A DNA stretch of 64,000 nucleotides from Leptolyngbyaceae cyanobacterium (GTDB lineage Bacteria; Cyanobacteriota; Cyanobacteriia; Phormidesmidales; Phormidesmidaceae). Positions 22,601-49,980 of this stretch are shown in pieces; within the stretch, counting starts at the first letter, position 1; each line of letters starts with the position of its first letter. The DNA lies in the NCBI GenBank assembly GCA_965263355.1, contig CBDHHL010000056.1:672001-736000 (forward strand). The letters are read 5' to 3'. The translations under genes and the position numbers were made by a program. A model generated the notes under the pieces. It saw only the letters and a list, made by a program, of their open reading frames with translations. It searched no databases and had not been told where the DNA came from.

Positions 22601-24615
22601 AAGTAGACCTGCAAGGCACTAGCGATATCAGTAATATTGACAGTGTTGCCGACAATGATCTGATTCGTACTGCCGACAAGCGTCTACTCCTGGACTTTGG
22701 TGACCTGGGGATTCGTCTGGACAACAGTGAAGCTCTGGTATTTGGTCCTGAGCTAGCAGATGGTCGCCAATCTCTGTTTGTGGTGAGCGACAACAACTTT
22801 AATGCAGGGGCTCAAATCACTCAATTTCTTGCTTTTGCCCTTGATATTGAGTCTGCCCCTCAACCCACCCTATCTGGCTTTGCCTCTTTAGATGCCGATA
22901 CCCTGGCCCCCGGCCCTGACTCCGGTGTCAATGGCCCCATCAGTGACGAGCGTCCCGGTCCCTTTCCCGGTCAACCCGTTGGCGGTTGGAGTGGCGTTCA
23001 GTTTGCCGATGAAGACAGTCTCTGGTTTATTGTTGATAGCCTGTTTGGTGGCAACACAGATACGCTGCTTCGGGTCTACAAAGTAGATCCTGACTTTGCT
23101 GGGTTTGAAAATGGCGATGGCAGTGTGCTCTTAGAAGAAGAGTTTATTACCCTATCTGACCCCAACAACCTGGTACCGTTTGAAATCCAAAATGCAGATG
23201 ATCCCGCCCGACCTCTAACGGGTGCAGACTTTGATACAGAAGCCCTGGTGATTGATGCCAATGGGGATATTTGGGTAGGTGATGAATATGGTCCTTACCT
23301 GTTGCACTTTGACCGTAACGGTGTGCTCCTGGAAGCACCCATTGCCACCCCCAATATTCTCATTGACGGTACGGTGCCAGATGCCCCCAATGATGTGGTG
23401 CGGGCTCCCCAGCATCCTGATGTGGAGGCCGGGCTGGCTGAGTTTAACCTGCGGGGTTCCCGTGGATTTGAGGGCATTGGTTATAGTCCTGATGGCACCA
23501 TTCTTTATCCCATCCTAGAAGCACCTGTGGATGGCGATCCAGAGAATGCCCTGCGGATCTATCAGTACAATATTGCCACAGGTACCTATGCCGATGAGCT
23601 AGTCGGATTCTACCCACTGGATAATCCGGGTGATACTCCCACCTTCCAGTTGGGTGATCTAACCCCGATCAACGAGAGCGAATTCCTGGCCATTGAGCGG
23701 GATGACTTCCAGGGAGATGATGCGTTCTTCAAGAAAGTCTTTAAGATCGATATCTCCCAGGTGGATGAAAATGGCTTTGTTCAAAAAGAAGAAGTCATTG
23801 ACTTGTTGGATATTGCTGATCCCCAGGATCTCAATGGCGATGGCAGTCTGGTCTTTGATTTACCCATTACCAGCATCGAAGATATTTTGATCTTTGATGA
23901 GAGTACTGTGTTGGTGTCAGTGGATAACAACTATCCCTTTGGTAGCTTTGCCACGGGCCGTCCTCCGGCCTTGGATAACAATGAAATTATTCTGGTCAAT
24001 CTGCCTGAGCCGTTGAACCTTGACCCACGCCTGGGTATCGCTGGTTTGACACCGTCTGTTACCGTCGGTGAAGCTGGTGATGATACCTTAGTCGGCGATG
24101 TTGCTGACAATATTATTGCTGGTGGTCTAGGAGATGACATTATTGCTGGTGGTGATGGTGATGATATCCTGCGTGGCGATTTGAATAGCCGTGCGCCTCA
24201 AGGCAATGTGGGTGGTGATGACCTGATCTTTGGTGGGGCTGGCAACGATCGCATTGGTGGTAAAGGCGGCAATGACGAGCTATTTGGTGATGCTGGTGAT
24301 GACCTACTTTGGGGTGATGCTGGTGATGATCTGCTGCGGGGTGATCTCGGTAACGATACCCTAACAGGAGATAATTTCTCCGGTGGTTCTGGCAGTGATA
24401 CCTTTATTCTGGCCATAGGAGAAGGAACTGATATCATTACTGACTTTGAAGTGGGTAATGACCTGATCGGTCTTGCCGATGGGTTGACCTTTGACCAGTT
24501 GACCATTGGTCAGAGTGACGATGCGGCTGTGATCAGCGTTGGTGATGAAGACTTGGCATTGCTTAACAGCGTTGCTGCTTCGGCAATGACAGAGACTGCC
24601 TTTACTGTGGTCTAA
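19699..24615 (+). CDS. Giant secreted phosphoesterase: EEP domain + phytase-like domain with nested GDPD + second phytase-like domain + RTX Ca-binding tail
   Basis: RPDVVLINEFD, RLSSKSHWD, HPTPPVFDG, GDQNAD, SDHRLV (EEP); GGLSGI/DPEG/SDNNF (phytase-like); AHRGG..PEN, EVDV, HDDTLDRTT (GDPD); GGxGxD repeats. Confidence 0.88.
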   Translation: MSTDIRFASFNTFLNRPSEGELITNLSTPDDTQAQAVAEILQRVRPDVVLINEFDFDAANEGIELFQDNYLSTAQAAGLDPIDYPYVYNAPSNTGVAAGFDFDNNGEVVTEPGSVGYGNDSFGFGFFPGQFAQVLLSQYPIVEEDIRTFQNFLWRDMPGALLPADPEDVDGNGDTENWYTEEELEVFRLSSKSHWDIPIDVDGEVIHVLASHPTPPVFDGPEDRNGTRNHDEIRFWSDYVTPGAGTYIYDDAEYVAAGNTTPDNPSGGLAAGELFVVMGDQNADPFDGDSIPGAIQQLLNNPLINISVSPGSVGGEDGAIRQAGANVGQLGDPAFDTGDFNDAAPGNLRADYVLPSRDLDITEAASFWPSEGDDLFDLVGVGFPVVSSDHRLVYADVSIPEEPFNTRKTVAGVEFLGQAVFETGFEFAGTEVGGLSGITYDPLRDVYYALSDDRGNRSGPIPEAGSLSEYIGFSDGSYFIEVPDDEINDFFAWDEAYPDLVSAHRGGFITGFPENAIETFEHTLTFAPALLEVDVRRTADGEWILMHDDTLDRTTTGTGLVSETTLAEIQELQLVDNEGNVTEFKVPTLQEALEWADGKTILELDLKSDDFFEEVVQIITDLDAEDQTRFITQNLEQATGIYNLNPDIHLGLFITSSNQADVFAGIETAPFDFDNVSAFTGVRPETEEFYESLHNEGIVAIQGLFGDQDFFGASTFINDLTEEQRTELFETVYERGGDAIASDFYQPISELLDYSQSPLPRYYTVTIDINDGSLEDGDVTFTDVTALLDAEGNPFPAGELDPEGITLNSLGTLFISSEGDARNLVDPFVNEFSLTGQQIRELPVPEKFLPTEDESTGIRNNQAFESLTITPDQRTLYTATENALNQDGPRSSLTEESPIRILSYDLTTGEPAEEFLYISDTIPVPPVPEDSFADNGLVELLALDNAGTLLALERSFAVGVGNNLRLYEVDLQGTSDISNIDSVADNDLIRTADKRLLLDFGDLGIRLDNSEALVFGPELADGRQSLFVVSDNNFNAGAQITQFLAFALDIESAPQPTLSGFASLDADTLAPGPDSGVNGPISDERPGPFPGQPVGGWSGVQFADEDSLWFIVDSLFGGNTDTLLRVYKVDPDFAGFENGDGSVLLEEEFITLSDPNNLVPFEIQNADDPARPLTGADFDTEALVIDANGDIWVGDEYGPYLLHFDRNGVLLEAPIATPNILIDGTVPDAPNDVVRAPQHPDVEAGLAEFNLRGSRGFEGIGYSPDGTILYPILEAPVDGDPENALRIYQYNIATGTYADELVGFYPLDNPGDTPTFQLGDLTPINESEFLAIERDDFQGDDAFFKKVFKIDISQVDENGFVQKEEVIDLLDIADPQDLNGDGSLVFDLPITSIEDILIFDESTVLVSVDNNYPFGSFATGRPPALDNNEIILVNLPEPLNLDPRLGIAGLTPSVTVGEAGDDTLVGDVADNIIAGGLGDDIIAGGDGDDILRGDLNSRAPQGNVGGDDLIFGGAGNDRIGGKGGNDELFGDAGDDLLWGDAGDDLLRGDLGNDTLTGDNFSGGSGSDTFILAIGEGTDIITDFEVGNDLIGLADGLTFDQLTIGQSDDAAVISVGDEDLALLNSVAASAMTETAFTVV

Positions 24616-24643
24616 TCGTGGCTAAAAAGCGGGCTCAATTGTG

Positions 24644-24737
24644 GGGTATCAACTTTAGCTAGGGCATCTAGACCAGATCAAAATTCGGAGTTCGGAGTTC
24701 GGAATTCGGAAGTCAGAAAGGGTTTGTGCTGATGCCC
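24644..24737. mobile_element. Short MITE related to copies 1 and 2 (94 bp)
   Basis: Ends GGGTATCAACTT...GCTGATGCCC; flanks CAATTGTG / CAATTATG (7/8 match); internal (TTCGGAR)n repeat; absent from the paralogous 3' UTR at 33285-33325. Confidence 0.75.
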
Positions 24738-24764
24738 CAATTATGGGTCTGTCTTTAATTATTG

Positions 24765-24806
24765 AAAAGTGAGCAACGAAGTTAGTTTTCGTTGCTCACT
24801 TTTTTT
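24765..24806 (+). terminator. Rho-independent terminator
   Basis: AAAAGTGAGCAACGAA-loop-TTCGTTGCTCACTTTT plus T tract. Confidence 0.85.
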
Positions 24807-24908
24807 GAGCGAAAATTTTAATTGCCGTTTCTCCCATACATTGTTGCTGCAAGAATATCTGTATCCTTAAACATTAAGTCATTCAAAGTTTCCATAAGAA
24901 CTTTCATT

Positions 24909-24960
24909 CTTAAAGATTCCTTAGCGTTCCCTTATAAACGCCTCAATAGATTCCTATGGT
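24909..24960 (+). promoter_or_regulatory. Pho-box-like 11-bp periodic array
   Basis: CTTA at 24909, 24920 and 24931 and CTCA at 24942, followed by TATGGT. Confidence 0.4.
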
Positions 24961-24993
24961 GACGTGGAGAAGTCAGTTATCCAGATTTCTCTA

Positions 24994-25707
24994 CTAATTT
25001 TGTGTGTCAGGTTGCACCAAGGCAGATCGACTGTTAAAGGAGATCACAATTCGGTCTTGTTGTCCCTGGTACGGTAATCCACTGTGCATCAGATAGGAGG
25101 GAAAAAGCAGCACCATGCCATCCTTTAGTGGAGGATGAACATAGGGCGTATTCAGATATTGATTACCAAAATCCATATAGCTGTTGCCCTTCCATAGGGG
25201 CGAGTAAAATCGGTTGCTTCCATTGGGAGCAGCGGTTCCGTGCTGTTTGCCAGAATCACCAATTTGGAGATAGTAGATGCCACACCAGGAACATCCGGAA
25301 TGGTAGTGGGCATCGTGAAAACCACCATTATTAGTGATATGGAACCAACAGTCGGTAATCTCGACCTGAATCTGTTGTGGATGGATTGAATGGTTGTCAC
25401 CGTTGATCGGGTTGTCCACACCATTCACATGGGCTACGGCCATTTGCACACTTTCCTGCAGAAAGACTTTGAGTTTTTGGAGACCCGTATGATCGTAGGC
25501 CAACAGATCAAAATTGCTCTCGTACAGTCCATAGGCTGACTTGGCTCCGGGGGCCACACCGCTAGCAATATTGTTTGTCTGTTGAGTTTTCAAACCATAC
25601 AAAAAGTCTCGAATTCCAGATGCTTCTTGGGGATGCTCTGGCCACAGGCGGGCGTAAAAGTAAGTAGCCCAAAACGTTTGAACCATTAAGTCGGTTGCTT
25701 TAACCAT
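24994..25707 (-). CDS. Putative 2OG-Fe(II) oxygenase (TIGR02466-like)
   Basis: W.......GFHDAHYH...W.GIYYL, LFPSYL.HS, RIVISFN. Confidence 0.8.
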   Translation of the reverse strand: MVKATDLMVQTFWATYFYARLWPEHPQEASGIRDFLYGLKTQQTNNIASGVAPGAKSAYGLYESNFDLLAYDHTGLQKLKVFLQESVQMAVAHVNGVDNPINGDNHSIHPQQIQVEITDCWFHITNNGGFHDAHYHSGCSWCGIYYLQIGDSGKQHGTAAPNGSNRFYSPLWKGNSYMDFGNQYLNTPYVHPPLKDGMVLLFPSYLMHSGLPYQGQQDRIVISFNSRSALVQPDTQN

Positions 25708-25736
25708 ACAGACCTTTATTAGTTACCAACGGTATT

Positions 25737-28700
25737 ATGGATACAATTTCTCCGATTATCGTTAGTTTAGTGCCCAGCGATGACGCGCAGAATGTGGGCA
25801 CTCGTGCGAATTTAGTCATCACCTTTGATGAACCGGTACGTCCTGGCAGTGGCAATATTACGATTCGACGCAGTGCCGATGATAGCGTCGTTGAAGCCAT
25901 TGATGTTACGTCGGCCCAGGTTACGGCTGAGGGCAACTCGATTGTCGTTGATCCCTCAGCTGATCTGGATGTGGGTGTGGAGTACTACGTTCAGATTAGC
26001 GAGGGTGCGATTACTGACACCGCCAGTACCCAAGTTTTATTTACTGAAGACTTTGAAAGTCTACCGCTGCAGCCCTTTGTGAGCGACACGGAAATTGGGG
26101 GCGATGGTACCGACTGGACCGATGTGCCGCCGGAGGGCTGGACACGGGATAATACCACGACACCTGAAGGTGGACCGGTAGAATTCTTTGGTTGGACATT
26201 TTTGGATAAGGAGTCCTGGGCAACAACGGCAGGCGATCAGGATCGGAACCTGTACACTAACGGTACTGGCACAGTAATGGTGGCGGACCCTGATGAGTAT
26301 GACGATGGGGCCATCAGCATCAGCCCCAATAGCTTTAATGCCTTTATCACCACCCCAGACATTGACCTGACCAATATTGCAGCGGATACGTTAACCGTAA
26401 CGTTTGACTCCAGTTGGCGACCGGAAGACCTGCAGCGGGCGGGGCTGAGTGTTTCCTATGACGGGGGGGAGGCGGTCCCCATTTTTGAATGGACCTCTGA
26501 CCCGGCAGACCCGGTGTTTGATGTCAACAATCTCACTAGCAGCCCTACGTTTAAGCCGGATGGGCTACCCAGCGTCAATGAAACCCTGGAAATTACCCTG
26601 AACAATCCAGCGGATGCGAGCACAGCAAGTCTCACGTTTGGTGTGTTTGAATCAGGTAATGACTGGTGGTGGGCTGTCGATAATATTGTGGTGGCCGGAG
26701 ATGCAGTAGATGGTGTAGACAATGCCTTTGCTGGCATTGATGACAGTAGCACGTGGAATTTTACTGCGATCGCAAGTCTCCCTCCCGAAGTCGCCAATCC
26801 CCTGGGACAGGTTGCTGCCACAGTGGGTGAAACCCAGGTGGTGGATCTATTTGACCTGTTTGAAGATGCCGACAATGCCGACACTGAGCTAACCTATCAG
26901 GTGGTGAACAACAGCAATCCTGATGCCGTCACCGTCTCAGAAATCAGTGCTACCGATGGCCAGTTGAGCCTGACGGTAAATGAAGTGGGGCTAACGGATA
27001 TCACCGTAGAAGCAACAGACCCCAACGGTAGTTCTGTTACCTCCACGTTCCAGGTAAAAGGACAGACCACCGATGCCTTTGTCTTTGCAGTGTTGGGCGA
27101 TACCCAGGACTACAGTACCTTTGCACCGGAAGTGTTTGAAGCTCAAACCCAATGGCTGGTGGATAACCGGGATGCGCTGGGGCTGGAGTTTGTGGTTCAC
27201 GTCGGGGACGTGGTCAACGCCAACAATGAGTTTGAATGGATGCGGGCCGACGGGGCGTTGAGCATTCTCGATGGTGAGGTGCCCTACGCGATTTTGCCAG
27301 GGAACCACGATATGGGGGCTGGTGGTTCGGCCAACGTGCGTGATACGGATCTGCTGAACCAGTTTTTCCCGGTCAGTCGATTTGAAGATACGGCCACCTT
27401 TGGCGGTGTCTATGACCAGGAGCCCGATCGCTACGACAACAACTACCACACCTTCACCGCCCCCGATGGCACCGCCTGGATGGTGTTGTCCCTGGAGTTT
27501 GGTCCCCGTGATGATGTATTACGCTGGGCCAATGAGGTGGTAGCAGCCCATCCTGATCATCGGGTGATTATTTCTACCCACGATTACTTGAACTTTGACC
27601 AGCTCCGTCACAACTCCTTTGATGTATTGGGTGAAGGCGACCCCCGCACCAGCTACGGTATTGGTGATTCTGTCGAAGGGGCCAATGATGGCGATGACAT
27701 TTGGAACAAGTTTGTCCGCAAGCATCCCAATATTTCCTTTGTCTTCGGTGGTCATATTTGCGGCGACGGTGGCGGCGACCTGATTAGCTATGGCGACTAT
27801 GGCAATCCGGTGCATCAAATTTTGGTGAACTATCAGCGCTGTGTTTCCTCAGTAACTCGCAATGGGGTGAACGACACGGGCTACATTCGCCTGTTTACGG
27901 TGAATCCCAGTGACGGCTCGGTGGTGATGGAGAGCTACTCCCCTGTACTCGATACCTTTAATACCGAACTGGAAGGTACCCAACTGCGGGGCCAACAGTT
28001 TGTCTTTGAGAATATCGATCTGGGGACTCCCAACACTGTGTCCCGCGCAGATGCAGGGGACTATCAGGTGGTGACAGCAGCCGGTGAGACAGCAGCCGTG
28101 ACCCTGGATGGCAGTGGCACTAGCGACTCCAGCGGTGATGGATTGCAGTATCAGTGGACGAATGCTGAGGGGAACCTGTTGGCCACAGAGGCGACACCGA
28201 CGGTAGACTTGCCCGTGGGGATAAATGACCTGACCCTGACGATCACCGATACCAACGGGATTACCAATAGCGATACAGTTACCGTCGCCGTGCAAAATGA
28301 CGACACCCTGCTGTACGAAGACTTTAATGATGGCAACTTCGATGGCTGGACAGCACTGGATCAGGGCAATCTCCTGGGTAACTGGTACGTGACCACCGAC
28401 GGTCAACTCTATGAAAGCAGCAATAGCTTTAGCTCTACGGATGAGACTGAGCGCTCTGATCGTCGTGGCCCCATTCTCATTTGGGATGATGCAGCGGCCC
28501 AGGGGTGGACAGACTATGTGGTGGATGCCACCCTGCGATCCACGGATAACGATGGCATTGGCATTGTCTTCCGTTACCAGGATGAGAACAACTACTACAA
28601 GTTAGATCTCGATACCCAGACCAATATCCGTGCCCTTTATAAGGTGCAAGGTGGTGTGGAAACCACCCTGGCCATAGAGGAAAAGGGCTACCCCTTCAAT

Positions 28701-31700
28701 GTGGAGATGGACCTGCAGGTGGCTGTAGTCGGTAAGGAGATTGTTGCCACGCTAAACGGTGAGAGTATTTTTGACGCGCCGATTGTGGATAACAATCCTC
28801 TGATCCAGGGCACGATTGGGCTTTACTCCTACGGCCAGGACCAGTCCATTTTCGACAATATCATGGTCAATTTGCCAACGTTGACGGCCCAGGCGGGACG
28901 GGACCAGACGGTCAGCGATCGCACCGACAGCGGCACCGGCACTACCACCCTACAGGGGGCTGCATCCTTTGCTAACTCAGACGCGGCCATTGCCAGCTAT
29001 GAGTGGATTCTAGACGATACGGTGATCGCCACCGGCATCAATCCCACGGTCACGTTGCCTGTCGGTGAGAATAGGCTCACGCTGCAGGTGACTGACAGTA
29101 ACGGGACGGTTAGTACCGACGAGGTTGTGGTCACAGTTAAGTCTAACGACAGTGTGCTGCTCTTTGATGACTTTAACGATCAGACCTTTGATGGCTGGGC
29201 CATTATCGACCAAGGGACAGAGAATGGCCCGTCAAACTGGAATGCTGTCAGCGGTTCCCTGGGGCAGTTCTCGGATATTGCCAGTCCCCAAACTACAGGC
29301 ACCAATCCCAACGGCGATGTATGGCGGGGTCTTCGTAAAGGTACCCTGGCCATCTATGACCCTGCTGCTGTCAATACTCAACCCATCAACTTTGCTGAAG
29401 ACCGTGATGGCAACGGCACGCTTGAAACCATTGTGAAGCAACTGGACTTCGAGACCAGCGCAGGCGACTTATCCGGGTTGATTTCCTATAATCAGGAATT
29501 GTTAACTGGGTTAGGGACTGAGTCTCTCAATCCTGCCAACAGTCTGGAACTGGACATCGACTTCTTTGGCACGTTGCTCACAGAGGAGGACGACTTCGGG
29601 TTTGACTTCTTCCCGCAGCTGATCTTTGAGAATGGGGTGGCCACCGGCCTGGAATATCAGATTCTTAACGATGACCTGGCTTTCAGCGTATCCAGCGTAT
29701 CCGGCGACCTGACTGTTGACTTTGAACAGGGTCCCTCTGGTGCACCCACCTTAACGGGAACGGGAACTGGGGTAATTGTCCCCTTTAGCGACGGCACTGG
29801 TGGCAACACCGTTGACCCCGCTGTTGACCCTTACACACTAAACAACTATGCCCTGGAAGCCACACTAAATTCCGCTGACGATGACGGCATCGGGCTGTTG
29901 TTCTATTACCAGGATGAGAACAACTACTACAAGCTAGAACTAGATGCGGATGACGGCTTTAGCAAGTTGGTCAAACTGGTGGATGGCATCGAGACCACCC
30001 TGGCACGGGTACCCAACAGCTATGCCTCCGACACCGATCTGCAGGTGCGGGTGGAAATTAGTGATGTGATCGACGTGGATGCTGACGGTGTAGTACAAAT
30101 CCAGGCCTTTGTGGATGGGGAAGACCTGTTTGGTGGTCCCATCACCGATAGTGACCTGGCCAATGGTACGGTGGGTCTCTACTCTTGGGGCAGTGCAGGT
30201 GTTCGCTTCGATAATGTTGAAGTGACCTCCCTGGCCGATGACACCGTCCTCACCCCGGCTGATCTGTTTATCACTAGTCTCTCTCCTGAAGACGACGCGA
30301 CTAATGTGGCAGTAGACGCCGATCTAGTGGGGCGCTTCAATCGGGATGTGCAGACGGGCAGTGGCAATATTGTTATCCGACAAGCGTCCGATGATAGCGT
30401 CGTTGAGACCATTGATGTCAATTCCGATCAGGTGACGGTGCTGGAGAATACGGTGACGGTGGATGCGATCGCAGACCTTGCCCCCGGTACCGACTACTAC
30501 GTCCAAATCGAAGCCGGTGCCTTAGAAGACCCCACGGGCATCACTACCCTTTTCTTTGAGGACTTCGAAGATTTGGCTACCGACCTGGGTCCCTTTGTCA
30601 GTCCCAGTGAGAGTGGCGGTGACGGCACCGACTTCACCAATACCCTGCCCGACGGCTGGAGTCAGACCAACACAACACCTGCAGGTGGCCCCATTGAGTT
30701 CTTTGGCTGGACCTTCCTGGATGCCAGTGCCTGGGTAGAAACCGCAGGCGACCAGAATCGTAGTCAGTTTACCAATGGCTCCGGTGTAGTCGCCGTGGCC
30801 GACCCCGATGAATACGACGATGGCGATACCGACATCGACCCCGATCAGTTCCAGGCTGCCATTACGACTCCTGAAATTGACCTGACGGGCGTTAATGCAG
30901 GCAGTGCTATCCTCACCTTTGACTCCAGTTGGCGACCTGAGGATCTGCAAAAGGCGCGAGTAACTGTCTCCTTCGATGGCGGTGAGGCGACGGAACTCCT
31001 GCTCTGGACCTCCGACCCGGCGGATGCCAACTTTAAGCCCGATGCCACCAACGAAACCCTCGCCCTCGCCCTTGATAATCCTGAGGGAGCCACCAATGCT
31101 GTGGTCACCTTCGAGGTATTTGAGGCCGGTAACGACTGGTGGTGGGCCGTGGACAATATCGAAGTCAAGGGCAGCACTGGGGAAGGACAACCCTTTGCAG
31201 GCATTAGTGACGACAGCACCTGGAACTTCAGCACCCGTCCTCTGGATACCCAAGCACCCCGCGTCATTAGCTTTACCCCGGCTGACAATGGTGTGGATGT
31301 GGCCGTGGATAGCAATCTGGCGATTCAGTTTGATGAGCCAATTCAAGCAGGTGTGGGTACGGTTGCGATCGCCACGGTTGCCGACGACACCATCGTTGAA
31401 ACCATCGATATCACCTCCGACCAAATCACCATCAGCGGCGATACCGTCATCATTGATCCAGCTAATGACCTGGCCAACGGCACCGACTACTATGTCCAGG
31501 TCGATGCAGGGGCCATTCAAGACACCGCCAATAATCCCGCTGCCGGTATCAGCAACTCCAGCAACTGGAACTTTGCCACGGTTGAGTCTGCCGACCCCGA
31601 TCTGATCAACGTCTTCTTTGAAGACTTTGAGAGCTTGAGCACCGATCTCGGTCCCTTCGTCAGTACTAGTGAAAGCGGTGGTGACGGCACGGACTTCACC

Positions 31701-33284
31701 AATACTCTGCCCGACGGCTGGAGTCAGGTGAACAATACCCCGGCTGGCGGCCCCCCTGAGTTCTTCGGTTGGACTTTCCTGGATGCCAACTCCTGGACAA
31801 CCACAGCAGGGGACCAAAACCGCAGTGAGTTCACCCGCGCCAGTGGCGTTGTCGCCGTCGCTGACCCCGACGAATACGACGACGGAGCGATTAGCATCGA
31901 CCCGGATCAGTTCCAGGCCGCCCTTACCACCCCTGAAATTAACCTTTCTGGAGCCGCTGCGGGGACGGCCCGAGTCAGCTTTGACTCCAGTTGGCGACCT
32001 GAAGATCTACAAAAGGCACGTCTGATGGTGTCCTTTGATGGCGGTGAGGCCATTGAACTGTTCCAGTGGACCTCCACCCCTGCCGATGCCACCTTCAAAC
32101 CCGATGCCACCAATGAGCGGGTCATCGTGGATCTAAACAATCCAGAAGGAGCCACCAATGCCGTCCTCACCTTTGAGGTATTCGATGGCGGTAACGACTG
32201 GTGGTGGGCTATAGACAATATCTCTGTCGATGCCCTGCCAGTTGAACAAGAGAGCATCATTCTCTTCACCGAAGACTTTGAAAGCCTGGAGCCTGTCCTG
32301 GGTCCCCTCGTCAGTCCTAGTGAGAGCGGTGGAGACGGCACCGACTTCACTGCCACCCTACCCGAGGGTTGGAGTCAAACCAACGACACCCCCACTGGTG
32401 GCCCCGAAGAATTCTTTGGCTGGACCTTCTTTGATTTCAACTCCTGGGTAACCACTGCCGGTGACCAGGACCGGAGTCAGTTTACCAATGCCTCTGGTGT
32501 AATCGCAGTGGCTGACCCAGATGAGTATGACGACGGCGACATCAGTATTGATCCCGATCAGTTCCAGGCTGTTATTACGACTCCTGACATTGACCTGATG
32601 GAGTCTGCTGCTGGCACCGTAGAAGTCACCTTTGACTCCAGCTGGCGACCTGAAGATCTGCAAAAGGCCCGCTTGATGGTGTCCTTTGACGGTGCCGAGG
32701 CCATCGAAATCTTCCAGTGGACCTCTACCCCCACCGATGCCACCTTTAAGCCAGATGCGGCCAATGAGAACCTCACGTTTGCCCTCGACAATCCAGAAGG
32801 AGCCAGTACCGCTGTTCTCTCCTTTGAAGTGTTTGACGGTGGCAACGACTGGTGGTGGGCTATCGACAACATTGTGGTAAGTGCGACAACAGAACCAATC
32901 GACCCAGTTGTTCCAGTAGAGCCTGTTCCACCCACTACTTTGGTAGGCGTCGCCTCCTTTGTTACGGTCGGTGAAACAGGTGATGATATCTTAGTTGGCG
33001 ATGTTGCTAGCAATATTGTTGCCAGTGGTCTAGGGGACGACATCATTACCGGTGGTAATGGTAGTGATACCTTTATTCTGGCCATCGGTGACGGCACTGA
33101 CACCATTGTTGACTTTGAAGTGGGCACTGACCTGATTGGGTTAACCGATGGGCTGACCTTTGAGCAGTTGTCTTTTGGTCAGCGTACCAATGCTGCTGTG
33201 ATCAGCGTTGGTGATGAGGATTTAGCATTGCTTAACGGCGTTGCTGCCTCAGCCTTAACTGAGAGCGTCTTTACTGTAGTCTAA
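25737..33284 (+). CDS. Giant (2515 aa) acidic secreted protein: SbsA-like Ig domains, 4 GNDWWWA repeat domains, calcineurin-like metallophosphoesterase, PKD-like and lectin-like domains, RTX-type tail
   Basis: GDTQ, HVGDVV, PGNHD, STHDY, GGH metallophosphoesterase motifs; repeated FEDFE..FFGWTF..ADPDEYDD..FDSSWRPED..GNDWWWA; two DxDGIG..F.YQDENNYYKL domains; C-terminus homologous to 19699..24615. Confidence 0.85.
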   Translation: MDTISPIIVSLVPSDDAQNVGTRANLVITFDEPVRPGSGNITIRRSADDSVVEAIDVTSAQVTAEGNSIVVDPSADLDVGVEYYVQISEGAITDTASTQVLFTEDFESLPLQPFVSDTEIGGDGTDWTDVPPEGWTRDNTTTPEGGPVEFFGWTFLDKESWATTAGDQDRNLYTNGTGTVMVADPDEYDDGAISISPNSFNAFITTPDIDLTNIAADTLTVTFDSSWRPEDLQRAGLSVSYDGGEAVPIFEWTSDPADPVFDVNNLTSSPTFKPDGLPSVNETLEITLNNPADASTASLTFGVFESGNDWWWAVDNIVVAGDAVDGVDNAFAGIDDSSTWNFTAIASLPPEVANPLGQVAATVGETQVVDLFDLFEDADNADTELTYQVVNNSNPDAVTVSEISATDGQLSLTVNEVGLTDITVEATDPNGSSVTSTFQVKGQTTDAFVFAVLGDTQDYSTFAPEVFEAQTQWLVDNRDALGLEFVVHVGDVVNANNEFEWMRADGALSILDGEVPYAILPGNHDMGAGGSANVRDTDLLNQFFPVSRFEDTATFGGVYDQEPDRYDNNYHTFTAPDGTAWMVLSLEFGPRDDVLRWANEVVAAHPDHRVIISTHDYLNFDQLRHNSFDVLGEGDPRTSYGIGDSVEGANDGDDIWNKFVRKHPNISFVFGGHICGDGGGDLISYGDYGNPVHQILVNYQRCVSSVTRNGVNDTGYIRLFTVNPSDGSVVMESYSPVLDTFNTELEGTQLRGQQFVFENIDLGTPNTVSRADAGDYQVVTAAGETAAVTLDGSGTSDSSGDGLQYQWTNAEGNLLATEATPTVDLPVGINDLTLTITDTNGITNSDTVTVAVQNDDTLLYEDFNDGNFDGWTALDQGNLLGNWYVTTDGQLYESSNSFSSTDETERSDRRGPILIWDDAAAQGWTDYVVDATLRSTDNDGIGIVFRYQDENNYYKLDLDTQTNIRALYKVQGGVETTLAIEEKGYPFNVEMDLQVAVVGKEIVATLNGESIFDAPIVDNNPLIQGTIGLYSYGQDQSIFDNIMVNLPTLTAQAGRDQTVSDRTDSGTGTTTLQGAASFANSDAAIASYEWILDDTVIATGINPTVTLPVGENRLTLQVTDSNGTVSTDEVVVTVKSNDSVLLFDDFNDQTFDGWAIIDQGTENGPSNWNAVSGSLGQFSDIASPQTTGTNPNGDVWRGLRKGTLAIYDPAAVNTQPINFAEDRDGNGTLETIVKQLDFETSAGDLSGLISYNQELLTGLGTESLNPANSLELDIDFFGTLLTEEDDFGFDFFPQLIFENGVATGLEYQILNDDLAFSVSSVSGDLTVDFEQGPSGAPTLTGTGTGVIVPFSDGTGGNTVDPAVDPYTLNNYALEATLNSADDDGIGLLFYYQDENNYYKLELDADDGFSKLVKLVDGIETTLARVPNSYASDTDLQVRVEISDVIDVDADGVVQIQAFVDGEDLFGGPITDSDLANGTVGLYSWGSAGVRFDNVEVTSLADDTVLTPADLFITSLSPEDDATNVAVDADLVGRFNRDVQTGSGNIVIRQASDDSVVETIDVNSDQVTVLENTVTVDAIADLAPGTDYYVQIEAGALEDPTGITTLFFEDFEDLATDLGPFVSPSESGGDGTDFTNTLPDGWSQTNTTPAGGPIEFFGWTFLDASAWVETAGDQNRSQFTNGSGVVAVADPDEYDDGDTDIDPDQFQAAITTPEIDLTGVNAGSAILTFDSSWRPEDLQKARVTVSFDGGEATELLLWTSDPADANFKPDATNETLALALDNPEGATNAVVTFEVFEAGNDWWWAVDNIEVKGSTGEGQPFAGISDDSTWNFSTRPLDTQAPRVISFTPADNGVDVAVDSNLAIQFDEPIQAGVGTVAIATVADDTIVETIDITSDQITISGDTVIIDPANDLANGTDYYVQVDAGAIQDTANNPAAGISNSSNWNFATVESADPDLINVFFEDFESLSTDLGPFVSTSESGGDGTDFTNTLPDGWSQVNNTPAGGPPEFFGWTFLDANSWTTTAGDQNRSEFTRASGVVAVADPDEYDDGAISIDPDQFQAALTTPEINLSGAAAGTARVSFDSSWRPEDLQKARLMVSFDGGEAIELFQWTSTPADATFKPDATNERVIVDLNNPEGATNAVLTFEVFDGGNDWWWAIDNISVDALPVEQESIILFTEDFESLEPVLGPLVSPSESGGDGTDFTATLPEGWSQTNDTPTGGPEEFFGWTFFDFNSWVTTAGDQDRSQFTNASGVIAVADPDEYDDGDISIDPDQFQAVITTPDIDLMESAAGTVEVTFDSSWRPEDLQKARLMVSFDGAEAIEIFQWTSTPTDATFKPDAANENLTFALDNPEGASTAVLSFEVFDGGNDWWWAIDNIVVSATTEPIDPVVPVEPVPPTTLVGVASFVTVGETGDDILVGDVASNIVASGLGDDIITGGNGSDTFILAIGDGTDTIVDFEVGTDLIGLTDGLTFEQLSFGQRTNAAVISVGDEDLALLNGVAASALTESVFTVV

Positions 33285-35250: not shown

Positions 35251-35333
35251 GTCTAACATAACGCAGGAGCGGACTGAACTTAAGTATCGGCTAATCTGAA
35301 AGATGCTGGCAGGCGCTCAGCTTCACGTTCGGC
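35251..35333 (+). other. attC-like recombination site 1
   Basis: R'' GTCTAAC, 5 nt, L'' GCAGGAGC ... L' GCTCAGC, 5 nt, R' GTTCGGC; lies just after the toxin stop. Confidence 0.65.
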
Positions 35334-35740
35334 TGCAATCGAGAAAAGAGAGTTTGCCAAGGGCCAGATCGGTGGTGGAGCAATCGCCCGTTGGTCAGTT
35401 GAGCATAATTCAGGTGTCCCAACTCGCGCTAGGTCCCATAAAGTTGTCGTCGATAGCGTCAGCATACATCTTGTCAACGACTGGCCAAGCCTCAAAAGTT
35501 CCACCAGCTATCGGCGGTCGCTTGCCTCAATATTGCGATCGCCAATCGCATTAACGACGAGTGCGCTCGGTAGGTGTGCGGGGTCTGCCAAGTGGCCAAG
35601 ATTAGGTTCTGTCAACGGTTGGTCAGTGGCCAAGGTCCCAATGGATATCGGTGGATCGCCCAGGGTAAATGGTTTTTAGCGGTTGGAGAGTGGGATGGGT
35701 GCGGGTTGAGATCGTGTCAGCCCCCGCCGGAAGTTTTGCC

Positions 35741-35827
35741 CCCGAACACTGCGTTGGAGTGGTCTGAGCGAGAAATATCGGATAAAATTAAAAAGTGTTG
35801 TACAGCTGCTCAGCTCCACCGTTCGGT
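35741..35827 (+). other. attC-like recombination site 2
   Basis: R'' CCCGAAC, 5 nt, L'' GTTGGAGT ... L' GCTCAGC, 6 nt, R' GTTCGGT. Confidence 0.65.
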
Positions 35828-36006
35828 AGTAGTTATAGCGTTTTTTTAGTTTTCTATAATTGAGCCACTGTCAGACAGCCTGGAGTGGTCTGAGCGAGAA
35901 ATATCGGATAAAATTAAAAAGTGTTGTACAGCTGCTCAGCTCCACCGTTCGGTAGTAGTTATAGCGTTTTTTTAGTTTTCTATAATTGAGCCACTGTCAG
36001 ACAGCC
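35755..36006. repeat. Exact 126-bp tandem duplication
   Basis: 35755-35880 is identical to 35881-36006. Confidence 0.95.
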
Positions 36007-36042: not shown

Positions 36043-36690
36043 ATGATCGCGATCGCGCCTATCAAATCGTTACCAGATGGCTCAGTGGCAACTATCCCAA
36101 TGAGCTGGGCAGAGTACCAGCAACTGGTTGCTAACCGAGGAGATCGCAGTACTCCGCGCCTTAAATATGCTAACGGATACCTGACCCTCAAGATGCCAAC
36201 CTTCGAGCACGGCCAGCTAGATGCCATTGTTGCTGATTTAATTGTTGCTATTCTCAACCAACAGCTGCGCGATTACGTTCGAACGACGCCCGTCACCCTA
36301 CAAATTCCCGAACAGGCAGGCATTGAACCCGACCATTGTTTTTGGCTCAGCAACATTGAACCCGACCATTGTTTTTGGCTCAGCAACTGGTCCGCTGTAA
36401 GCGGCAAAAGTCGAATTGACTTGGCAACTGATCCGCCCCCCGATATTGCAGTTGAAGTAGATGTGACTAACTTCACGAATATCGCAGATTACGAACTTTT
36501 TAAGGTTCCTGAAGTATGGCTAATTCGAGGGGATGTTCTAACAATCTTTATTCTAGCGTCTGGGGGGTACACTCAAACAGAGTCTAGTCAGTTTTTCCCT
36601 GATATTGCTATACCGAAACTCTATCAGCAGGTGATTTCAGCAGTTGCCGAAGGTGCTAGTCCTCCTAGAGCAATTCGATCAATTGTCTAA
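36043..36690 (+). CDS. Uma2 (DUF820) family endonuclease with an 11-aa in-frame duplication
   Basis: MP..EHG, IEPDHCF, PPPDIAVEVD, VPEVW; IEPDHCFWLSN occurs twice (36321-36386). Confidence 0.9.
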   Translation: MIAIAPIKSLPDGSVATIPMSWAEYQQLVANRGDRSTPRLKYANGYLTLKMPTFEHGQLDAIVADLIVAILNQQLRDYVRTTPVTLQIPEQAGIEPDHCFWLSNIEPDHCFWLSNWSAVSGKSRIDLATDPPPDIAVEVDVTNFTNIADYELFKVPEVWLIRGDVLTIFILASGGYTQTESSQFFPDIAIPKLYQQVISAVAEGASPPRAIRSIV

Positions 36691-41104: not shown

Positions 41105-41989
41105 ATGGATATTCTATCGCTCCGTTTATTTCTGAGAATCGCAGAGCTGAGTGGGGTCACCGCAGCAGCGCAAGACCTTTCGCTCTCCCCCGCCAGTGCC
41201 AGCGCCCGTCTGGTCAAGCTGGAAGAAACCATAGGGATTCGTCTGTTCAACCGAACGACCCGCGCCGTGTCTTTGACCACCGATGGCGAGGCGTTTTTGC
41301 CCTATGCCCAAGAGATGATTACAACGCTGGAAACGGGCCTCAGTGCCGTTAAAGGGGAGGATGCAAAGGCTAAGGGAATATTGAGAATTACCATGCCAGG
41401 TTCCTTTGGCCGGATGTATATCATTCCCACCCTGGCTGAATTTCATGCCCGCCATCCCCTAGTCAGTCTGGATTTGCGTCTATCCGATGCAGTTTTGGAT
41501 GTTGTTGAAGGGGCCTATGACCTAATTATTCGCAATGCACCGTTGGTGGATAGCAGCTTAATTGTGCGCAAACTGGCCTCTGATCGGCGTATTCTCGTGG
41601 CTTCTCCTGACTATCTCGAACGATATGGCGAGCCGACCACACCTGATGATTTGCTAAATCATCAATGCGTCTGTCTTGCTGGAGCAACTAAATGGGCGTT
41701 TGAAAATGGACAAACGGTAAGCGTTCCGCGATCGTTCGTGATTAATGACGGTGAGGCGCTACGCAAGATGGTTGAGCAGGGCCTGGGAATTGGCATCAAG
41801 TCGCTGTGGAATGCTAGCGACAGCTTGAAAGCTGGGCGGCTAGTCGAAATCATGACAGAATTTCCCCTTACTACCAACACTGCAATTTGGCTCTTGTACC
41901 CCAGTCGCCGGATCATGGCTCCGAAAGTTCACGCCATGATTGATTTTTTGATTGAACAATTCCAGCCTGTTCCACCTTGGGAGGGCTAA
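41105..41989 (+). CDS. LysR-type regulator (CrgA-like), divergent from the MDR/ECH operon
   Basis: N-terminal HTH ..RLFNRTTR.VSLT.DG; ASPDYL..G.P..P.DL..H.C. Confidence 0.93.
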   Translation: MDILSLRLFLRIAELSGVTAAAQDLSLSPASASARLVKLEETIGIRLFNRTTRAVSLTTDGEAFLPYAQEMITTLETGLSAVKGEDAKAKGILRITMPGSFGRMYIIPTLAEFHARHPLVSLDLRLSDAVLDVVEGAYDLIIRNAPLVDSSLIVRKLASDRRILVASPDYLERYGEPTTPDDLLNHQCVCLAGATKWAFENGQTVSVPRSFVINDGEALRKMVEQGLGIGIKSLWNASDSLKAGRLVEIMTEFPLTTNTAIWLLYPSRRIMAPKVHAMIDFLIEQFQPVPPWEG

Positions 41990-42471
41990 TAAAGTAGCAA
42001 GTAATATCTCTGTTATATTGCCTCCCTCAATAAATCTCAAGCTCACTTACAACAACCCCACACTCTACAAGATGGGTGGCTTTCCTAATTGGGCTCCCCA
42101 AAACTGTCCAGAGTGTTGACGTTGGAGGAGTTTAGAAAATTATTAATTATTAAAGATGTAAGTGATTAACCTAAAGCTTCTTATGCCGCATAACATAGGC
42201 CCTGAGGCGGACGAGGTCAATAGCAAAGGCTAAAATTCTTTTTCTGCTTTAGCTTTAGCGCGGATTCAGACGTTCAAAATTGACCTAATAGTCAGGTGTT
42301 CAGGGAGACTGAACCTGCGCTATTAGATGGGGCTGCGTTGCTGAATGATCATTGATACGGGTTAGCTGTTCATAAGATATTTCTCCAAGTGACTGCATAG
42401 AGTGCTCGATCTTGTTTTGGTTGTTACTGTTTTTATTGCTTGTTTTCAAGTGCAATTTGTTCTTCTTGCAC

Positions 42472-43755
42472 TTATTGTTTAGGTTGTTGTTGAACGCCTA
42501 ATAGCTTTACTAGTGGTGATTTTTTACGTCTCAGTGCAGCCAGATATTTCTCCTCGTCATAGGGTACACCATCTTGCCAACAACGCCAGAGAATTCTCCC
42601 CCACTTATAGGCCAAGGCTCGAATCGCTTTTTGATGTGACTTACCCTTTAGTCGTTGTTGTTGATAAAACGCTTGTGACCAAACCGAGCGAGGCCTGGCA
42701 TGAGCAACCCACTCGACAAAGGTTTGTCTTAGAAAGATGGGGCAAGACCAACGCCAATGAACCCATCGCTTTTTGCCACTCTCTTCTTTGACTGGCGCGA
42801 TGCCAATGTAACTCAAAAAAGACTGAGCGCAATTAAAGCGAGTTCGGTCTTCACCAAAGGCCGCTAACAATCGTGGCGCTAAATGAGGCCCAGCCCCTGG
42901 CAATGCCTTAAAAAGTTCTGCATCCGGCAGCGATTCAAATAACGAGGCAATTTGACGCTCAAACACAATCAATTGCGACAAGACTACTTTCAATAAAGCG
43001 ACTAAGCCTTGCATTAACGCTTGGGCTGGAATGGTGATAGCGTCGTCTCGCGTCAAGGGTGGCCCAGCGTCTTGAATTTGCTGAGTTCGCCGTTGAATCG
43101 TGGTTTTGCGAATGATGTGATGGCTACGAAAGAAGTCTCTCAAGACATCAGCTGTAGCAGCTTGAGCCTCTTGTAAATTGGGAAACTGTTCAAGGAATTC
43201 ACAAAACGCAATGGTGTCTTTATCTTCAAACCAGTCGAGCACTTGAGGAAAATAGGATTTGAGTGCGGCGGTGATCCGATTCGTCAGCCGGACCTTCTCA
43301 CCCACTAACATGCGACGGGACTCAACCCATTGTCTCAATGCACGATGCTTCGGACAACCTGATGTCCAGATATCAAGTTTTTCACCATGTTTTTGCATCA
43401 ATTCGACGATCAGTTTGGCATCGATGGGATCCGATTTGGCCCGCGAGGGCTGAAACGCTTTGCGATAGTTCGCGACCGTTCGAGGATTAACGGGCACCAG
43501 CACCAAATTCTCGTATTGACATAGGCCATAAAGGAGGGGGCCGCGTTTCTGCTCCAACCCAACCAGCAACTTGGACTCTCCATAGGTTTTTCGTAAGCGA
43601 TTGACCCAATCTGCAATGGATTGGGGCTTGGATTGAATCGTGCAATGCTCCCAGGTTTCGTTCTGGCAGTCATAGAGCGCAATATCATGTTTACGATCTG
43701 CCCAGTCAATCCCGATATAAGCCGCATATGCTGTTGGACTTTGATTGAGTTTCAT
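42472..43755 (-). CDS. IS110-family transposase/recombinase
   Basis: DEDD RuvC-like motifs YIGIDWAD, GLEQ, KSDPIDA; LPGAG; GIAP...ESG serine loop. Confidence 0.95.
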   Translation of the reverse strand: MKLNQSPTAYAAYIGIDWADRKHDIALYDCQNETWEHCTIQSKPQSIADWVNRLRKTYGESKLLVGLEQKRGPLLYGLCQYENLVLVPVNPRTVANYRKAFQPSRAKSDPIDAKLIVELMQKHGEKLDIWTSGCPKHRALRQWVESRRMLVGEKVRLTNRITAALKSYFPQVLDWFEDKDTIAFCEFLEQFPNLQEAQAATADVLRDFFRSHHIIRKTTIQRRTQQIQDAGPPLTRDDAITIPAQALMQGLVALLKVVLSQLIVFERQIASLFESLPDAELFKALPGAGPHLAPRLLAAFGEDRTRFNCAQSFLSYIGIAPVKEESGKKRWVHWRWSCPIFLRQTFVEWVAHARPRSVWSQAFYQQQRLKGKSHQKAIRALAYKWGRILWRCWQDGVPYDEEKYLAALRRKKSPLVKLLGVQQQPKQ

Positions 43756-43798
43756 TGTGCTAAATTGAGGGTGTTTTTGTTTGACGGAGAGTCTGCCA

Positions 43799-44066
43799 CC
43801 AGTCGCCTTGCGAAGTGATTATGGAAAGGGTTATTTCCCTGCTCCCTGAGGATTCGTTGGGCAGCGATTGGACTGGCTTGAAGGGCGATTCGATATGTTA
43901 GTAGTCATCTTCTGACTGGCGCTGCATAGTCGTCCCCCCAAGCTAGCAGATTCTCTCCTTTCTTGACTCTATGCTTTTTTCCAGATTTAGAACATCTAAA
44001 GGGAGGAGCGATACGATATGTTAGTAGACATCTATACTGTCGTCCAATGCATAGTCGTCTCCTCCC
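43799..44066 (-). ncRNA. Candidate bridge RNA with three stem-loops (two target-type, one donor-type)
   Basis: Hairpins at 44001-44066, 43876-43943 and 43799-43876; compensatory change GACA/TGTC vs GTCA/TGAC; G-U pairs favour the minus strand; loops match element ends and flanks. Confidence 0.75.
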
Positions 44067-44171
44067 GTTTTTCTATGCTCGTCCCCCCATAAATCCCAAT
44101 GCACACCGACCATACAAAGGTTGAATTCTTAGAACTCAATTTTGGTGACGGCGGGTGATTGGGAACGTTTT

Positions 44172-44393
44172 CTAGGTTTGTTCTAATTCTTCTAATAACG
44201 TTTCGATAGCTTGCAGCTTACTTTCATACTGCTGTACCCGATAAGTTAACTCATACTTTGCTTCTGAGTCTGACTTAACTGTTAGTTCCTGCTTCAGCCA
44301 CTTTAACTTTTTTCGAATCTCCTGATACTCTTCTTCAAGATCTTCACGTTTTTGTTGAATGCGTCTTTGAGCAGCTGTTGAAGAAAAAGACAT
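44172..44393 (-). CDS. Small coiled-coil protein (resembles cyanobacterial effector-associated domain EAD9)
   Basis: QRRIQQKREDL...Y....KL..L...L....D...K..L pattern; family call from memory only. Confidence 0.45.
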   Translation of the reverse strand: MSFSSTAAQRRIQQKREDLEEEYQEIRKKLKWLKQELTVKSDSEAKYELTYRVQQYESKLQAIETLLEELEQT

Positions 44394-44637
44394 GGTAGTT
44401 GCTCCTAGGGAGACTGGTTCCGCCTGATGGGATGATTCAGCCAAAACGCTTGTAATTCAAGGGATACAGCCGCTTTAGAAGAAGATCATTCAAACCGTTA
44501 CTCTATAGGCCTTTCAGGCATTTTTCCCATTACACAGAGCCAGTGCCACAGATTGCCAAAGAGCTAAATTTGAACAAAGATAATATTCAGAAAAGGAGAA
44601 TCTTTTCTTAAATCAGATAACAAAATAATTATGGTTA

Positions 44638-49138: not shown

Positions 49139-49980
49139 ATGAAAATTAAGTACCTTTCTACTCTTATTGCTGCCTCAATTGTTAGTGTTACCACTGTAAT
49201 TGCGCCTACTCAGTTTATTACTGCCCAAGCCAATCCTTGTGCAGCTACTGCCCAAGCTAACCCTTGCGCAGCGAATCCCTGTGCAGCGAATCCTTGCGCA
49301 GCTAACCCTTGTGCAGCTAACCCTTGTGCGGCGAATCCCTGTGCGGCGAATCCCTGTGCGGCTAACCCTTGTGCGGAATCCCTGTGCGGCTAACCCTTGT
49401 GCGGCGAATCCCTGTGCGGCGAATCCCTTGTGCGGCTAACCCTTGTGCGGCTAACCCTTGTGCGGCGAATCCCTGTGCGGCTAACCCTTGCGCAGCTAAC
49501 CCTTGTGCGACAGCAGCCAATCCTTGTGCAGCAGCGACAGCGTCTGATATCCCAGCTGTTTTTTCTGATCCTCAAGCGGACAACAATCTGGCGATCCGAG
49601 GCTATGACCCAGTAGCTTACTTTACAGCTGGTGCACCTGTTGAGGGGAGCAGCAGCTATGAGTATGAGTGGAATGGTGCTACCTGGCGTTTTTCTAGTGC
49701 CGCTAATAAAGCACTGTTTGCGGCTAATCCCGAAACCTATGCACCTCAGTATGGTGGCTATTGTGCTAAGGCCTTAAGTGAAGGCAATATTGCTTCAACC
49801 GTGCCTGAGGCCTGGGATATCGTTGATGGCAAGCTTTATCTAAATTACAGTCTGGATGTGCAGAAACAGTGGAAGGGAGATGTGCCTGGTAACATTGCTA
49901 AGGCTAATGCCCTATGGCCGAATATTCTAAATACTTCCAATGTTGTGTACTACGACACCGTTGGGGCTGTTTATTTCTAG
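49139..49980 (+). CDS. Secreted NPCAA-repeat plus YHS-domain protein, frameshifted within the repeat in this sequence
   Basis: Signal peptide (AQA); 19 NPC motifs; AIRGYDPVAYF, F.S..N...F..NP..YAPQYGGYCA, I.DGKLYLNY, I.KA...WP. Confidence 0.8.
49226..49533 (+). repeat. 15-bp tandem repeat (GCN AAY CCY TGY GCN)
   Basis: Read directly; units vary mainly at synonymous positions. Confidence 0.95.

Follow-up and report, generated by a model that had tools for sequence, protein, structure and literature searches.

A Putative Bridge RNA with Two Target-Binding Loops in an IS110-Family Element Inserted at a Cyanobacterial attC-Like Site

Introduction

Bridge RNAs are described as bispecific, carrying one target loop and one donor loop. 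A locus on contig CBDHHL010000056.1 of a Leptolyngbyaceae cyanobacterium (assembly GCA_965263355.1) raises the question of whether one such RNA can hold two target loops with different guides. The stretch that we analyzed, called the window here, is 64,000 nucleotides (nt) long (contig positions 672,001 to 736,000), and all coordinates refer to it unless a genome is named. A sequence-only reading of the window had proposed that three hairpins (A, B, and C) upstream of an IS110 open reading frame (ORF) form a bridge RNA, in which A and B bind attC-like targets and C binds the ends of the element. We re-read all of its strings and coordinates on the window sequence and found them correct. Our comparison with relatives, labelled L (loci) and G (genomes), indicates that this is probably a dual-targeting bridge RNA, with loops A and B addressing different classes of attC arms. 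We assign this interpretation a probability of about 0.74; the function of loop B is deduced from comparison.

Results

An Intact and Recently Mobile Insertion Sequence

The element is an intact, recently mobile IS110-group insertion sequence (Table 1). Its ends were determined from an empty-site joint, in which contigs from three public DNA runs (X1, X2, and X3) pass directly from 42194 to 44092 and skip 1897 nt. The depth of this joint was 22.2 (X1), 23.7, and 5 across the runs. The ends are also marked by the points where the likeness to L001, L002, and L016 stops. A contig over the occupied left junction had a depth of 6.6, and further contigs cross occupied junctions. As empty and occupied forms coexist in the same runs, the insertion is polymorphic in the source material. 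In the orientation of the element, the empty site reads TGCATTGGGA-TT-GTTATGC (..GGGA-TT-GTTATGC), and the element proper extends from 44091 to 42197 plus one copy of the 2-nt core, with an ambiguity of 1 nt at the joint. There are no terminal inverted repeats and no long duplication, and a short core flanks both ends, as is usual in the IS110 group. A four-letter shared core, TATG, was considered and ruled out, since the empty-site joint lacks TAT.

The recombinase contains the DEDD_Tnp_IS110 domain (PF01548; 95.2 bits, E 4.4e-27) and the Transposase_20 domain (PF02371; 57 bits, E 2.6e-15), both above their cut-offs. Between the left end and the ATG lie 336 nt of non-coding DNA, upstream of the gene. 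The position of the long non-coding region, upstream in IS110 and downstream in IS1111 elements (PMC11187229), together with the two domains, places the element in the IS110 family, as had been proposed.

The −35-like box of the right end is 17 nt away from the tip, and a joined circle would therefore read TTGACC-N17-TATTAT, a predicted junction promoter such as has been described in these families (PMC11187229). The TTGAC letters are kept in most relatives. The circle junction was not seen in the contigs of the three DNA runs. In the same runs, the element body was approximately 2.5 times deeper than its flanks (window 41800-44500). Loose ends at 44092-44093 enter other attC-like flanks (GTCCGCTGCATTTGAA; ..CTGCTCCAACAGG), which indicates that more copies exist.

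Table 1. Coordinates of the element, its putative bridge-RNA modules, and its insertion site in the window.
Feature	Position	Strand	Basis or remark
IS110-family element, including one copy of the 2-nt core	42195..44091	minus	1897 bp; empty-site joint
Recombinase ORF, 427 aa	42472..43755	minus	PF01548 + PF02371
Target-binding loop A (hairpin A)	44001..44066	minus	fold -24.8 kcal/mol, z -3.81
Left target guide, loop A, TGCATTGGAC	44042..44051	minus	first 8 nt equal left flank 44103-44096
Right target guide, loop A, CTAACAT	44018..44024	minus	reverse complement: core AT + GTTAG
Linker between loops A and B, 57 nt	43944..44000	minus	z 0.49; conserved A-rich motif
Target-binding loop B (hairpin B)	43876..43943	minus	fold -22.0 kcal/mol, z -2.80
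Left target guide, loop B, TGCAGCGCCA	43917..43926	minus	sequence reading; same guide in L002, L016
Right target guide, loop B, CTAACAT	43895..43901	minus	letters as in loop A; conserved
Donor-binding loop (hairpin C)	43799..43876	minus	fold -22.6 kcal/mol, z -2.23
Left donor guide, CCTCAGGG	43844..43851	minus	equals element right end 42207-42200
Right donor guide, CCATAAT	43818..43824	minus	reverse complement: core AT + TATGG
Left core copy TT, target-derived	44092..44093	minus	empty-site reading
Right core copy AT	42195..42196	minus	joint; same AT in both right-hand guides
attC-like site, larger part, left of element	44093..44173	minus	model R1, 39.6 bits, E 1.6e-8
attC core site GTTATGC, right of element	42188..42194	minus	GTTRRRY but for one letter
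-35-like box TTGACC in right end	42215..42220	minus	17 nt from element tip; sequence reading

Guides in the Three Hairpins

Each hairpin was folded alone and compared with shuffled sequences. Hairpins A, B, and C were more stable than their shuffles, while the linker between A and B was not. Hairpins A and B share one scaffold, consisting of GACGAC, YA, a 10-nt variable segment, a 4-bp inner stem, CTACTAACATATCG, and the outer stem. The inner stem pairs GACA with TGTC in hairpin A and GTCA with TGAC in hairpin B, the change on one side being compensated on the other. The 3' loop segment TACTAACAT is common to both hairpins, while the 5' segments differ (TGCATTGGAC in A and TGCAGCGCCA in B).

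The guides of loop A match the actual insertion site. On the left, positions 44051-44044 read TGCATTGG, and the same eight bases occur in the flank at 44103-44096; by arithmetic, the chance that a loop segment and a flank of about 12 nt each have an 8-mer in common is about 4 in 10,000. On the right, the reverse complement of TAACAT (44023-44018) occurs at the junction as ATGTTA (42196-42191), and this guide is also complementary to TGTTA of the empty site. Both matches had been reported before, and both stand. The accompanying view that the flanking TAACAT derives wholly from the target does not, since the joint fixes the element ends and positions 42195-96 are thus the element's own copy of the core.

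Hairpin C matches the element itself. In addition to its left guide, it contains CCATAA (43824-43819), which in reverse complement gives the left end, TTATGG (44092-44087). The longer CCATAAT pairs with TATGG (44091-44087) preceded by the core AT, a match of 7 nt. In all three hairpins, the 5' guide is same-sense and the 3' guide is antisense, as in IS621, which supports the earlier assignment of A and B as target-type loops and C as the donor loop. The RNA thus has two target loops next to its donor loop, instead of the one-plus-one arrangement of an IS621-type bridge RNA.

The Target Is an Integron attC-Like Site

A covariance model (R1) was built from the natural left flanks of 45 relatives, with the window left out. 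Its best match within the window is the left flank of the element, and this match begins at the stop codon of a 90-aa ORF (44172-44444). The rebuilt empty sites of 30 loci form one family, with a far-end GYYTAAC, two complementary arms, and GTTAGRC right after the core; GTTAGRC is also what relatives carry at the core site. The spacing of approximately 88 nt between GYYTAAC and GTTAGRC in the relatives conforms to the inverse-core arrangement of attC sites (RYYYAAC/GTTRRRY, ~60-130 bp). TAAC was found 70-88 nt upstream in 51 of 73 unique flanks, compared with 13 of 73 in a control span. The alignment of the 45 flanks yielded a 12-bp consensus helix with unpaired bases, which were read by eye, consistent with the imperfect palindrome of attC. 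Another pattern, TAAC...TATGTTAG, was rejected, its frequency being not above that of the reversed control.

The site in the window is a lone, degenerate attC-like site outside any integron array. Its far box is degenerate (GAAAAC) and its near end is GTTATGC. No integrase was detected among the 39 ORFs scanned of the 49 ORFs of at least 150 aa in the window. In the genomes of relatives, integron integrases (TIGR02249) scored 444-480 bits (cut-off 265) in four of five, and none of 14 control genomes had a score above the cut-off. The attC model found at least 13 to 38 sites per genome in five relatives, some of them clustered. An array is evident in G006, where five matches at 610-621 kb lie beside intI at 607-608 kb. 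In natural sites without an insertion, the ending is arm-NT-GTTAGRC, in agreement with the empty site of the window. The attC-like nature of the targets, suggested by the sequence-only reading, is therefore corroborated by a model built without the window and by the integrases in four of the five genomes.

In three genomes, an attC-model match lies just upstream of intI, on the same strand as intI. Given the usual divergent layout, the end targeted by the element would be the R''-L'' end, as originally written, with the R'/R'' labels being provisional. In G028, 7 of the 29 attC-model matches are occupied by elements of this IS110 group, and the elements therefore likely shape cassette arrays.

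Three more attC-model matches occur in the window (35258-35953, minus strand, E 6.9e-6 to 0.0087), adjoining a Uma2-family ORF (36043-36690). Two of them lie within a perfect 126-nt tandem duplication (35755-35880 and 35881-36006), and the site at 35258-35333 is unoccupied and ends in ..TCCTGCGTT-AT-GTTAGAC. In G007 (L012 and L271; G007:C1:1521605-1522105 and 751494-752060), an element copy abuts the 3' half of intI (profile positions 148-314, one stop), and the 5' half (positions 1-189) lies 770 kb from it. This split may reflect a rearrangement at the element or at an attC site. In G002, an attC-like left half (G002:C5:7966744-7966825) runs into ..CGTCCGTCTCAGGGCCTATGTTAG, which repeats the letters of the element's right end and junction; a partial intI lies 2 kb away. 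The right end of the element, CGTCCGC-CTCA-GGGMC, resembles the attC arm CGTCCGC-TGCA-NNNNN, and this likeness in letters hints that the donor end was derived from an attC arm.

Two Loops Are Conserved among Relatives

A protein scan of species-representative genomes yielded 59 loci, almost exclusively from cyanobacteria, and a DNA search across 401 genomes from the same class gave matches in 42. Further stretches were added. A metagenome scan with an invariant 14-mer returned 119 stretches, nearly all chance occurrences, with only L140, L142, L151, L178, L184, and L192 being genuine loci. The resulting motif census comprised 85 distinct records, 49 of which were complete from the left end through the donor loop. 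Two target loops were present in 39 of these 49, and one in the other 10.

The structure of 43 base pairs was evaluated on 30 aligned relatives. Pairing was observed in 90.2% of the cells, compared with 85.0 ± 0.4% in shuffled alignments (0 of 500). Fifteen of the 43 pairs changed on both sides (reached by 1 of 500 shuffles), and the covariation score was 0.182, against 0.036-0.105 with slid partners. Outer-stem pairs changed on both sides in seven of eight cases for hairpin B and three of eight for hairpin A, which indicates that both hairpins are kept as RNA helices. The inner stem of donor hairpin C also covaries, and the right target guide is nearly invariant.

The recombinase tree (33 sequences, quick IQ-TREE, unrooted, with the long-branched row L224 unreliable) separates the two forms in part. 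Six of the eight single-loop rows, together with one unclassified row, fall in one clade (support 99), and L025 and L017 are isolated single-loop rows within two-loop clades. The loop-number label needs at least three changes on this tree. Members of the main clade have different inner stems in A and B, as in the window (GACA/TGTC and GTCA/TGAC). In a second two-loop clade, which is sister to the single-loop clade on the unrooted tree, both loops have GACA/TGTC and further shared letters.

The single-loop clade (L018, L021, L027, L034, L039, L048, and others) carries an unrelated hairpin, ..CTGAAGC..GCTTCAG.., in the place of loop A, and the inner stem of its lone loop is GACA/TGTC. In G028, two separate attC sites (L353 and L354, G028:C1 ~1920440-1921052 and 4836370-4836980) hold only a stub of approximately 77 nt, consisting of the left end and the 5' part of loop A. 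In both, the right-guide DNA (..CTAACAT-AT) is fused straight to the attC GTTAG, creating the perfect palindrome CTAACATATGTTAG. The two stubs look like products of a recurrent internal deletion that joined the guide-coding DNA to the right junction.

Insertion Flanks Sort by Loop

If both target loops guide insertion, flanks should fall into loop-A and loop-B types, and at the level of classes they do. Among 42 unique two-loop elements with a left flank, loop A fits the flank better in 24 and loop B in 16, with two ties. The best match of flanks to their own loops totalled 263, compared with 230.7 ± 8.1 when bridge RNAs were permuted among loci (0 of 500). Shuffling the six variable letters of a loop lowered the match from 195 to 172.2 ± 5.3 for loop B and from 215 to 174.2 ± 5.5 for loop A (0 of 1000 each).

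The two loops are also of different kinds. With the TGCAT class assigned by the fifth letter alone, 30 of the 42 elements have a loop A of this class, and none has such a loop B. The flanks of these 30 elements comprise 14 of the TGCAT class, 14 of the other class, and two unclassed. The other-class flanks fit loop B only, not loop A.

Individual genomes display both flank types for one RNA. In G006, the same bridge RNA (guides TGCAGTGAGC and TCCAACGTCA) is present, without any difference, in five copies. Their flanks are of the loop-2 type three times (TCCAACAACAG once and ACCAACGCAG twice) and of the loop-1 type once (TACAGTGA), and one flank scores equally with the two loops (TCAGAGGCGA). 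A subfamily in G028 with the guides TGCATCGCGC and TCCAACGAGA has the flanks TGCATCGCGC-TT, TCCAACGAC-TT, and TCCAGCCGGG-TT, the first matching loop A at 10 of 10 letters and the second matching loop B at 8 of 9. The two relatives that have the window's own loop-B guide lie beside TGCAGCTTTT (L002) and TACAGCGTCTT (L016). The window copy itself occupies a loop-A site, and the use of loop B in this copy is what we infer from comparison.

Discussion

Proposed Mechanism

We propose that the upstream non-coding region would be transcribed as a bridge RNA of three modules, namely the target loops A and B and the donor loop C. The 5' guide of each target loop (T[GC]CA plus approximately six variable letters) would pair with the bottom strand of one attC arm, and the invariant 3' guide would pair with the 2-nt core and the conserved GTTAG core site. 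Loop C would pair likewise with the joined ends of the element. By analogy with IS621, either loop A or loop B, each presumably loaded with a recombinase dimer, would meet the complex of loop C and donor. Two classes of attC arms could thereby be served, TGCAT(T/G)GG via loop A and T(G/C)CA(G/A)CG via loop B.

In IS621, one synaptic complex draws its target and donor loops from separate RNA molecules, recombination also works with split loops, and the stem-loop of the target loop is shorter than that of the donor loop (PMC11208158). Of the three loops here, A and B carry the short stem-loop of the target type, and C carries the long form. A two-target transcript therefore fits the known mechanism without a new step.

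Weighing Dual Targeting against an Idle Loop

The strongest competing explanation, which we regard as unlikely, is that one target loop is functional and the other is an idle duplicate. Insertions at sites of the other class would then arise through tolerant or half-match recombination, using the shared right guide and GTTAG. Half-match insertion has been reported for IS621 (10.64898/2026.08.31.748434), and by means of the shared right guide alone it could fill class-II sites. The existence of single-loop relatives (10 of the 49 complete ones) is in line with this explanation.

Several of our results also weigh against dual targeting. In a fine-scale test, flanks were classed independently of the guides, and own loops were compared with permuted loops. 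For loop B, the 24 class-II flanks scored 128 against 113.3 ± 7.3, a modest excess (47 of 2000 permutations), and the 14 class-II flanks of elements with a TGCAT loop A scored 76 against 71.6 ± 5.3, which is no significant difference (470 of 2000). For loop A, class-I flanks scored 99 against 96.8 (637 of 2000), likewise not significant, because class-I guides are all alike. The covariation of guides and flanks that the sequence-only reading had predicted among homologues is thus strong for classes and modest for loop B by itself. Guide–flank matches are imperfect, mostly of six to eight letters. The flanks of L006 and L240 (TCCAACCGGG) match neither loop, and L025 has a single B-like loop yet lies in a TGCAT-class site.

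Unoccupied attC sites were not enriched for guide matches. In G028, 5 of 22 matched loop A and 6 of 22 loop B (reached by 110 and 73 of 500 shuffles), and in G006 the counts were 3 and 4 of 24 (reached by 111 and 73 of 500). Exact guide words in four relatives' genomes numbered 22 for loop A against 14 for the control, and 31 for loop B against 5. The 20 loop-B-word matches inspected of these 31 included no attC site and lay in ordinary, mostly coding sequence, so that the excess is compositional. The exact 16-mer that the sequence-only reading spelled for loop B also leaves out a spacer of 2-4 nt between the left guide match and the core.

Three further points are unfavorable. The left guides end 2-3 nt before the core, both in the window and in the consensus of relatives, and the core dinucleotide AT is therefore found in both right guides but not in the left guides, unlike the four guides of IS621. 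The two core copies differ from each other (TT left, AT right), again unlike IS621. Finally, the public runs in which this stretch occurs are three DNA runs, with no RNA run listed.

Against an idle loop stand the compensatory changes that maintain both hairpins (seven of eight outer-stem pairs in B, three of eight in A) and the invariant right guide kept in both loops. The left guides have stayed distinct, with no loop B of the TGCAT class among the 42 elements, and shuffling the variable letters of either loop lowers the flank match. Near-perfect A-type and B-type sites are found for one subfamily within a single genome, G028. For these reasons, we favor the reading in which loops A and B each direct insertion.

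Other Possible Functions for the Hairpins

Still less probable is that the second target-type loop does another job, such as recruiting extra recombinase, acting as a decoy that tunes activity, or pairing attC with attC for cassette rearrangement. Nothing speaks directly for it, beyond the location of the elements within and next to integron arrays and the complete target-loop anatomy of both loops, by which each should bind a recombinase dimer. However, IS621 shows no target–target recombination, a donor-loop stem contact being missing (PMC11208158), and a decoy would need no variable left guides that track the classes of flanks.

That the hairpins are no RNA guide, but DNA-level repeats or protein-binding sites of the left end, is very improbable: the lack of a listed RNA run with the stretch and of any Rfam 15 match at E up to 1 would suit it, whereas the same-sense and antisense guides to the target and to the element's own ends reproduce the IS621 layout, the stems covary like RNA helices, and the guide letters vary with the flanks.

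Comparison with Known Systems

According to published accounts, IS621 (PMC11208160, PMC11208158) resembles the window element in its recombinase with DEDD and Transposase_20 domains and in the non-coding RNA upstream, in the left end. Its target and donor loops each have a 5' same-sense left guide and a 3' antisense right guide (PMC11208160), and it likewise has a short target stem-loop, a longer donor stem-loop, and a 2-nt core (PMC11208160, PMC11208158). A promoter split across the joined ends would be a further likeness; in our case it is predicted from sequence. The differences are that IS621 has one target loop and the window element two, and that the left guides of IS621 cover the core (PMC11208160) whereas those of the window element stop short of it. 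The guides of the window element specify the core AT, while its natural targets have NT. IS621 targets a repetitive extragenic palindromic (REP) element, while the window element targets attC, and the hosts here are cyanobacteria.

The IS1111-attC group (ISKpn4, ISPst6), whose guide is called seekRNA, also combines a DEDD-type recombinase with an element-encoded RNA guide and inserts at one end of attC in one orientation (PMC11187229). Its own features, as far as this source describes them, are a downstream non-coding region, subterminal inverted repeats, and one target-recognising part (PMC11187229). The window element, by contrast, has its non-coding region upstream, as in the IS110 type, and two target loops. 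What is new here is an IS110-type lineage homing to cyanobacterial integron attC sites, a habit previously described for proteobacterial IS1111-type elements. That group was reportedly the subject of Tetu & Holmes 2008 and Post & Hall 2009.

ISEc21, an IS110-type element, shares the upstream non-coding region, which it requires for circle formation and transposition, and its abutted ends form a promoter (PMC11187229), as is predicted for the window element. It differs in having a linear target within IS3-family transposase genes and one target loop (PMC11187229). In the portion of the literature accessible to us, we came across no bridge RNA described as having two target loops; such RNAs may appear in the supplements of a survey preprint (10.64898/2026.10.21.760802).

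The conservation of the two-target-loop form suggests that one transcript can accommodate extra target modules and that the system apparently puts them to use, which bears on multiplexed or fallback targeting in genome engineering. A bolder view, which we consider possible though rather doubtful, is that the two-loop layout is a selected natural multiplexed guide, perhaps arisen more than once, and that the elements are dedicated parasites of cyanobacterial integrons. If selection and repeated origin were true, evolution could extend the range of a bridge recombinase through the addition of target loops, and the engineering of multi-target bridge RNAs would have a ready template.

Other Features of the Window

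The repeat D17 (5934-5967 and 43926-43959) was rejected as a chance likeness, the surroundings having no bridge-RNA features. At least 14 copies of a 15-nt unit (AAYCCYTGYGCRGCK) occupy 49232-49539, partly within an ORF (49369-49980) that encodes a YHS domain and partly upstream of it. The region 19699-33284 contains two ORFs of very large size (1638 and 2515 aa) with internal repeats of 650-1060 nt, and their domains include phytase-like, endonuclease/exonuclease/phosphatase, GDPD, RTX, Big_5, and metallophosphatase domains.

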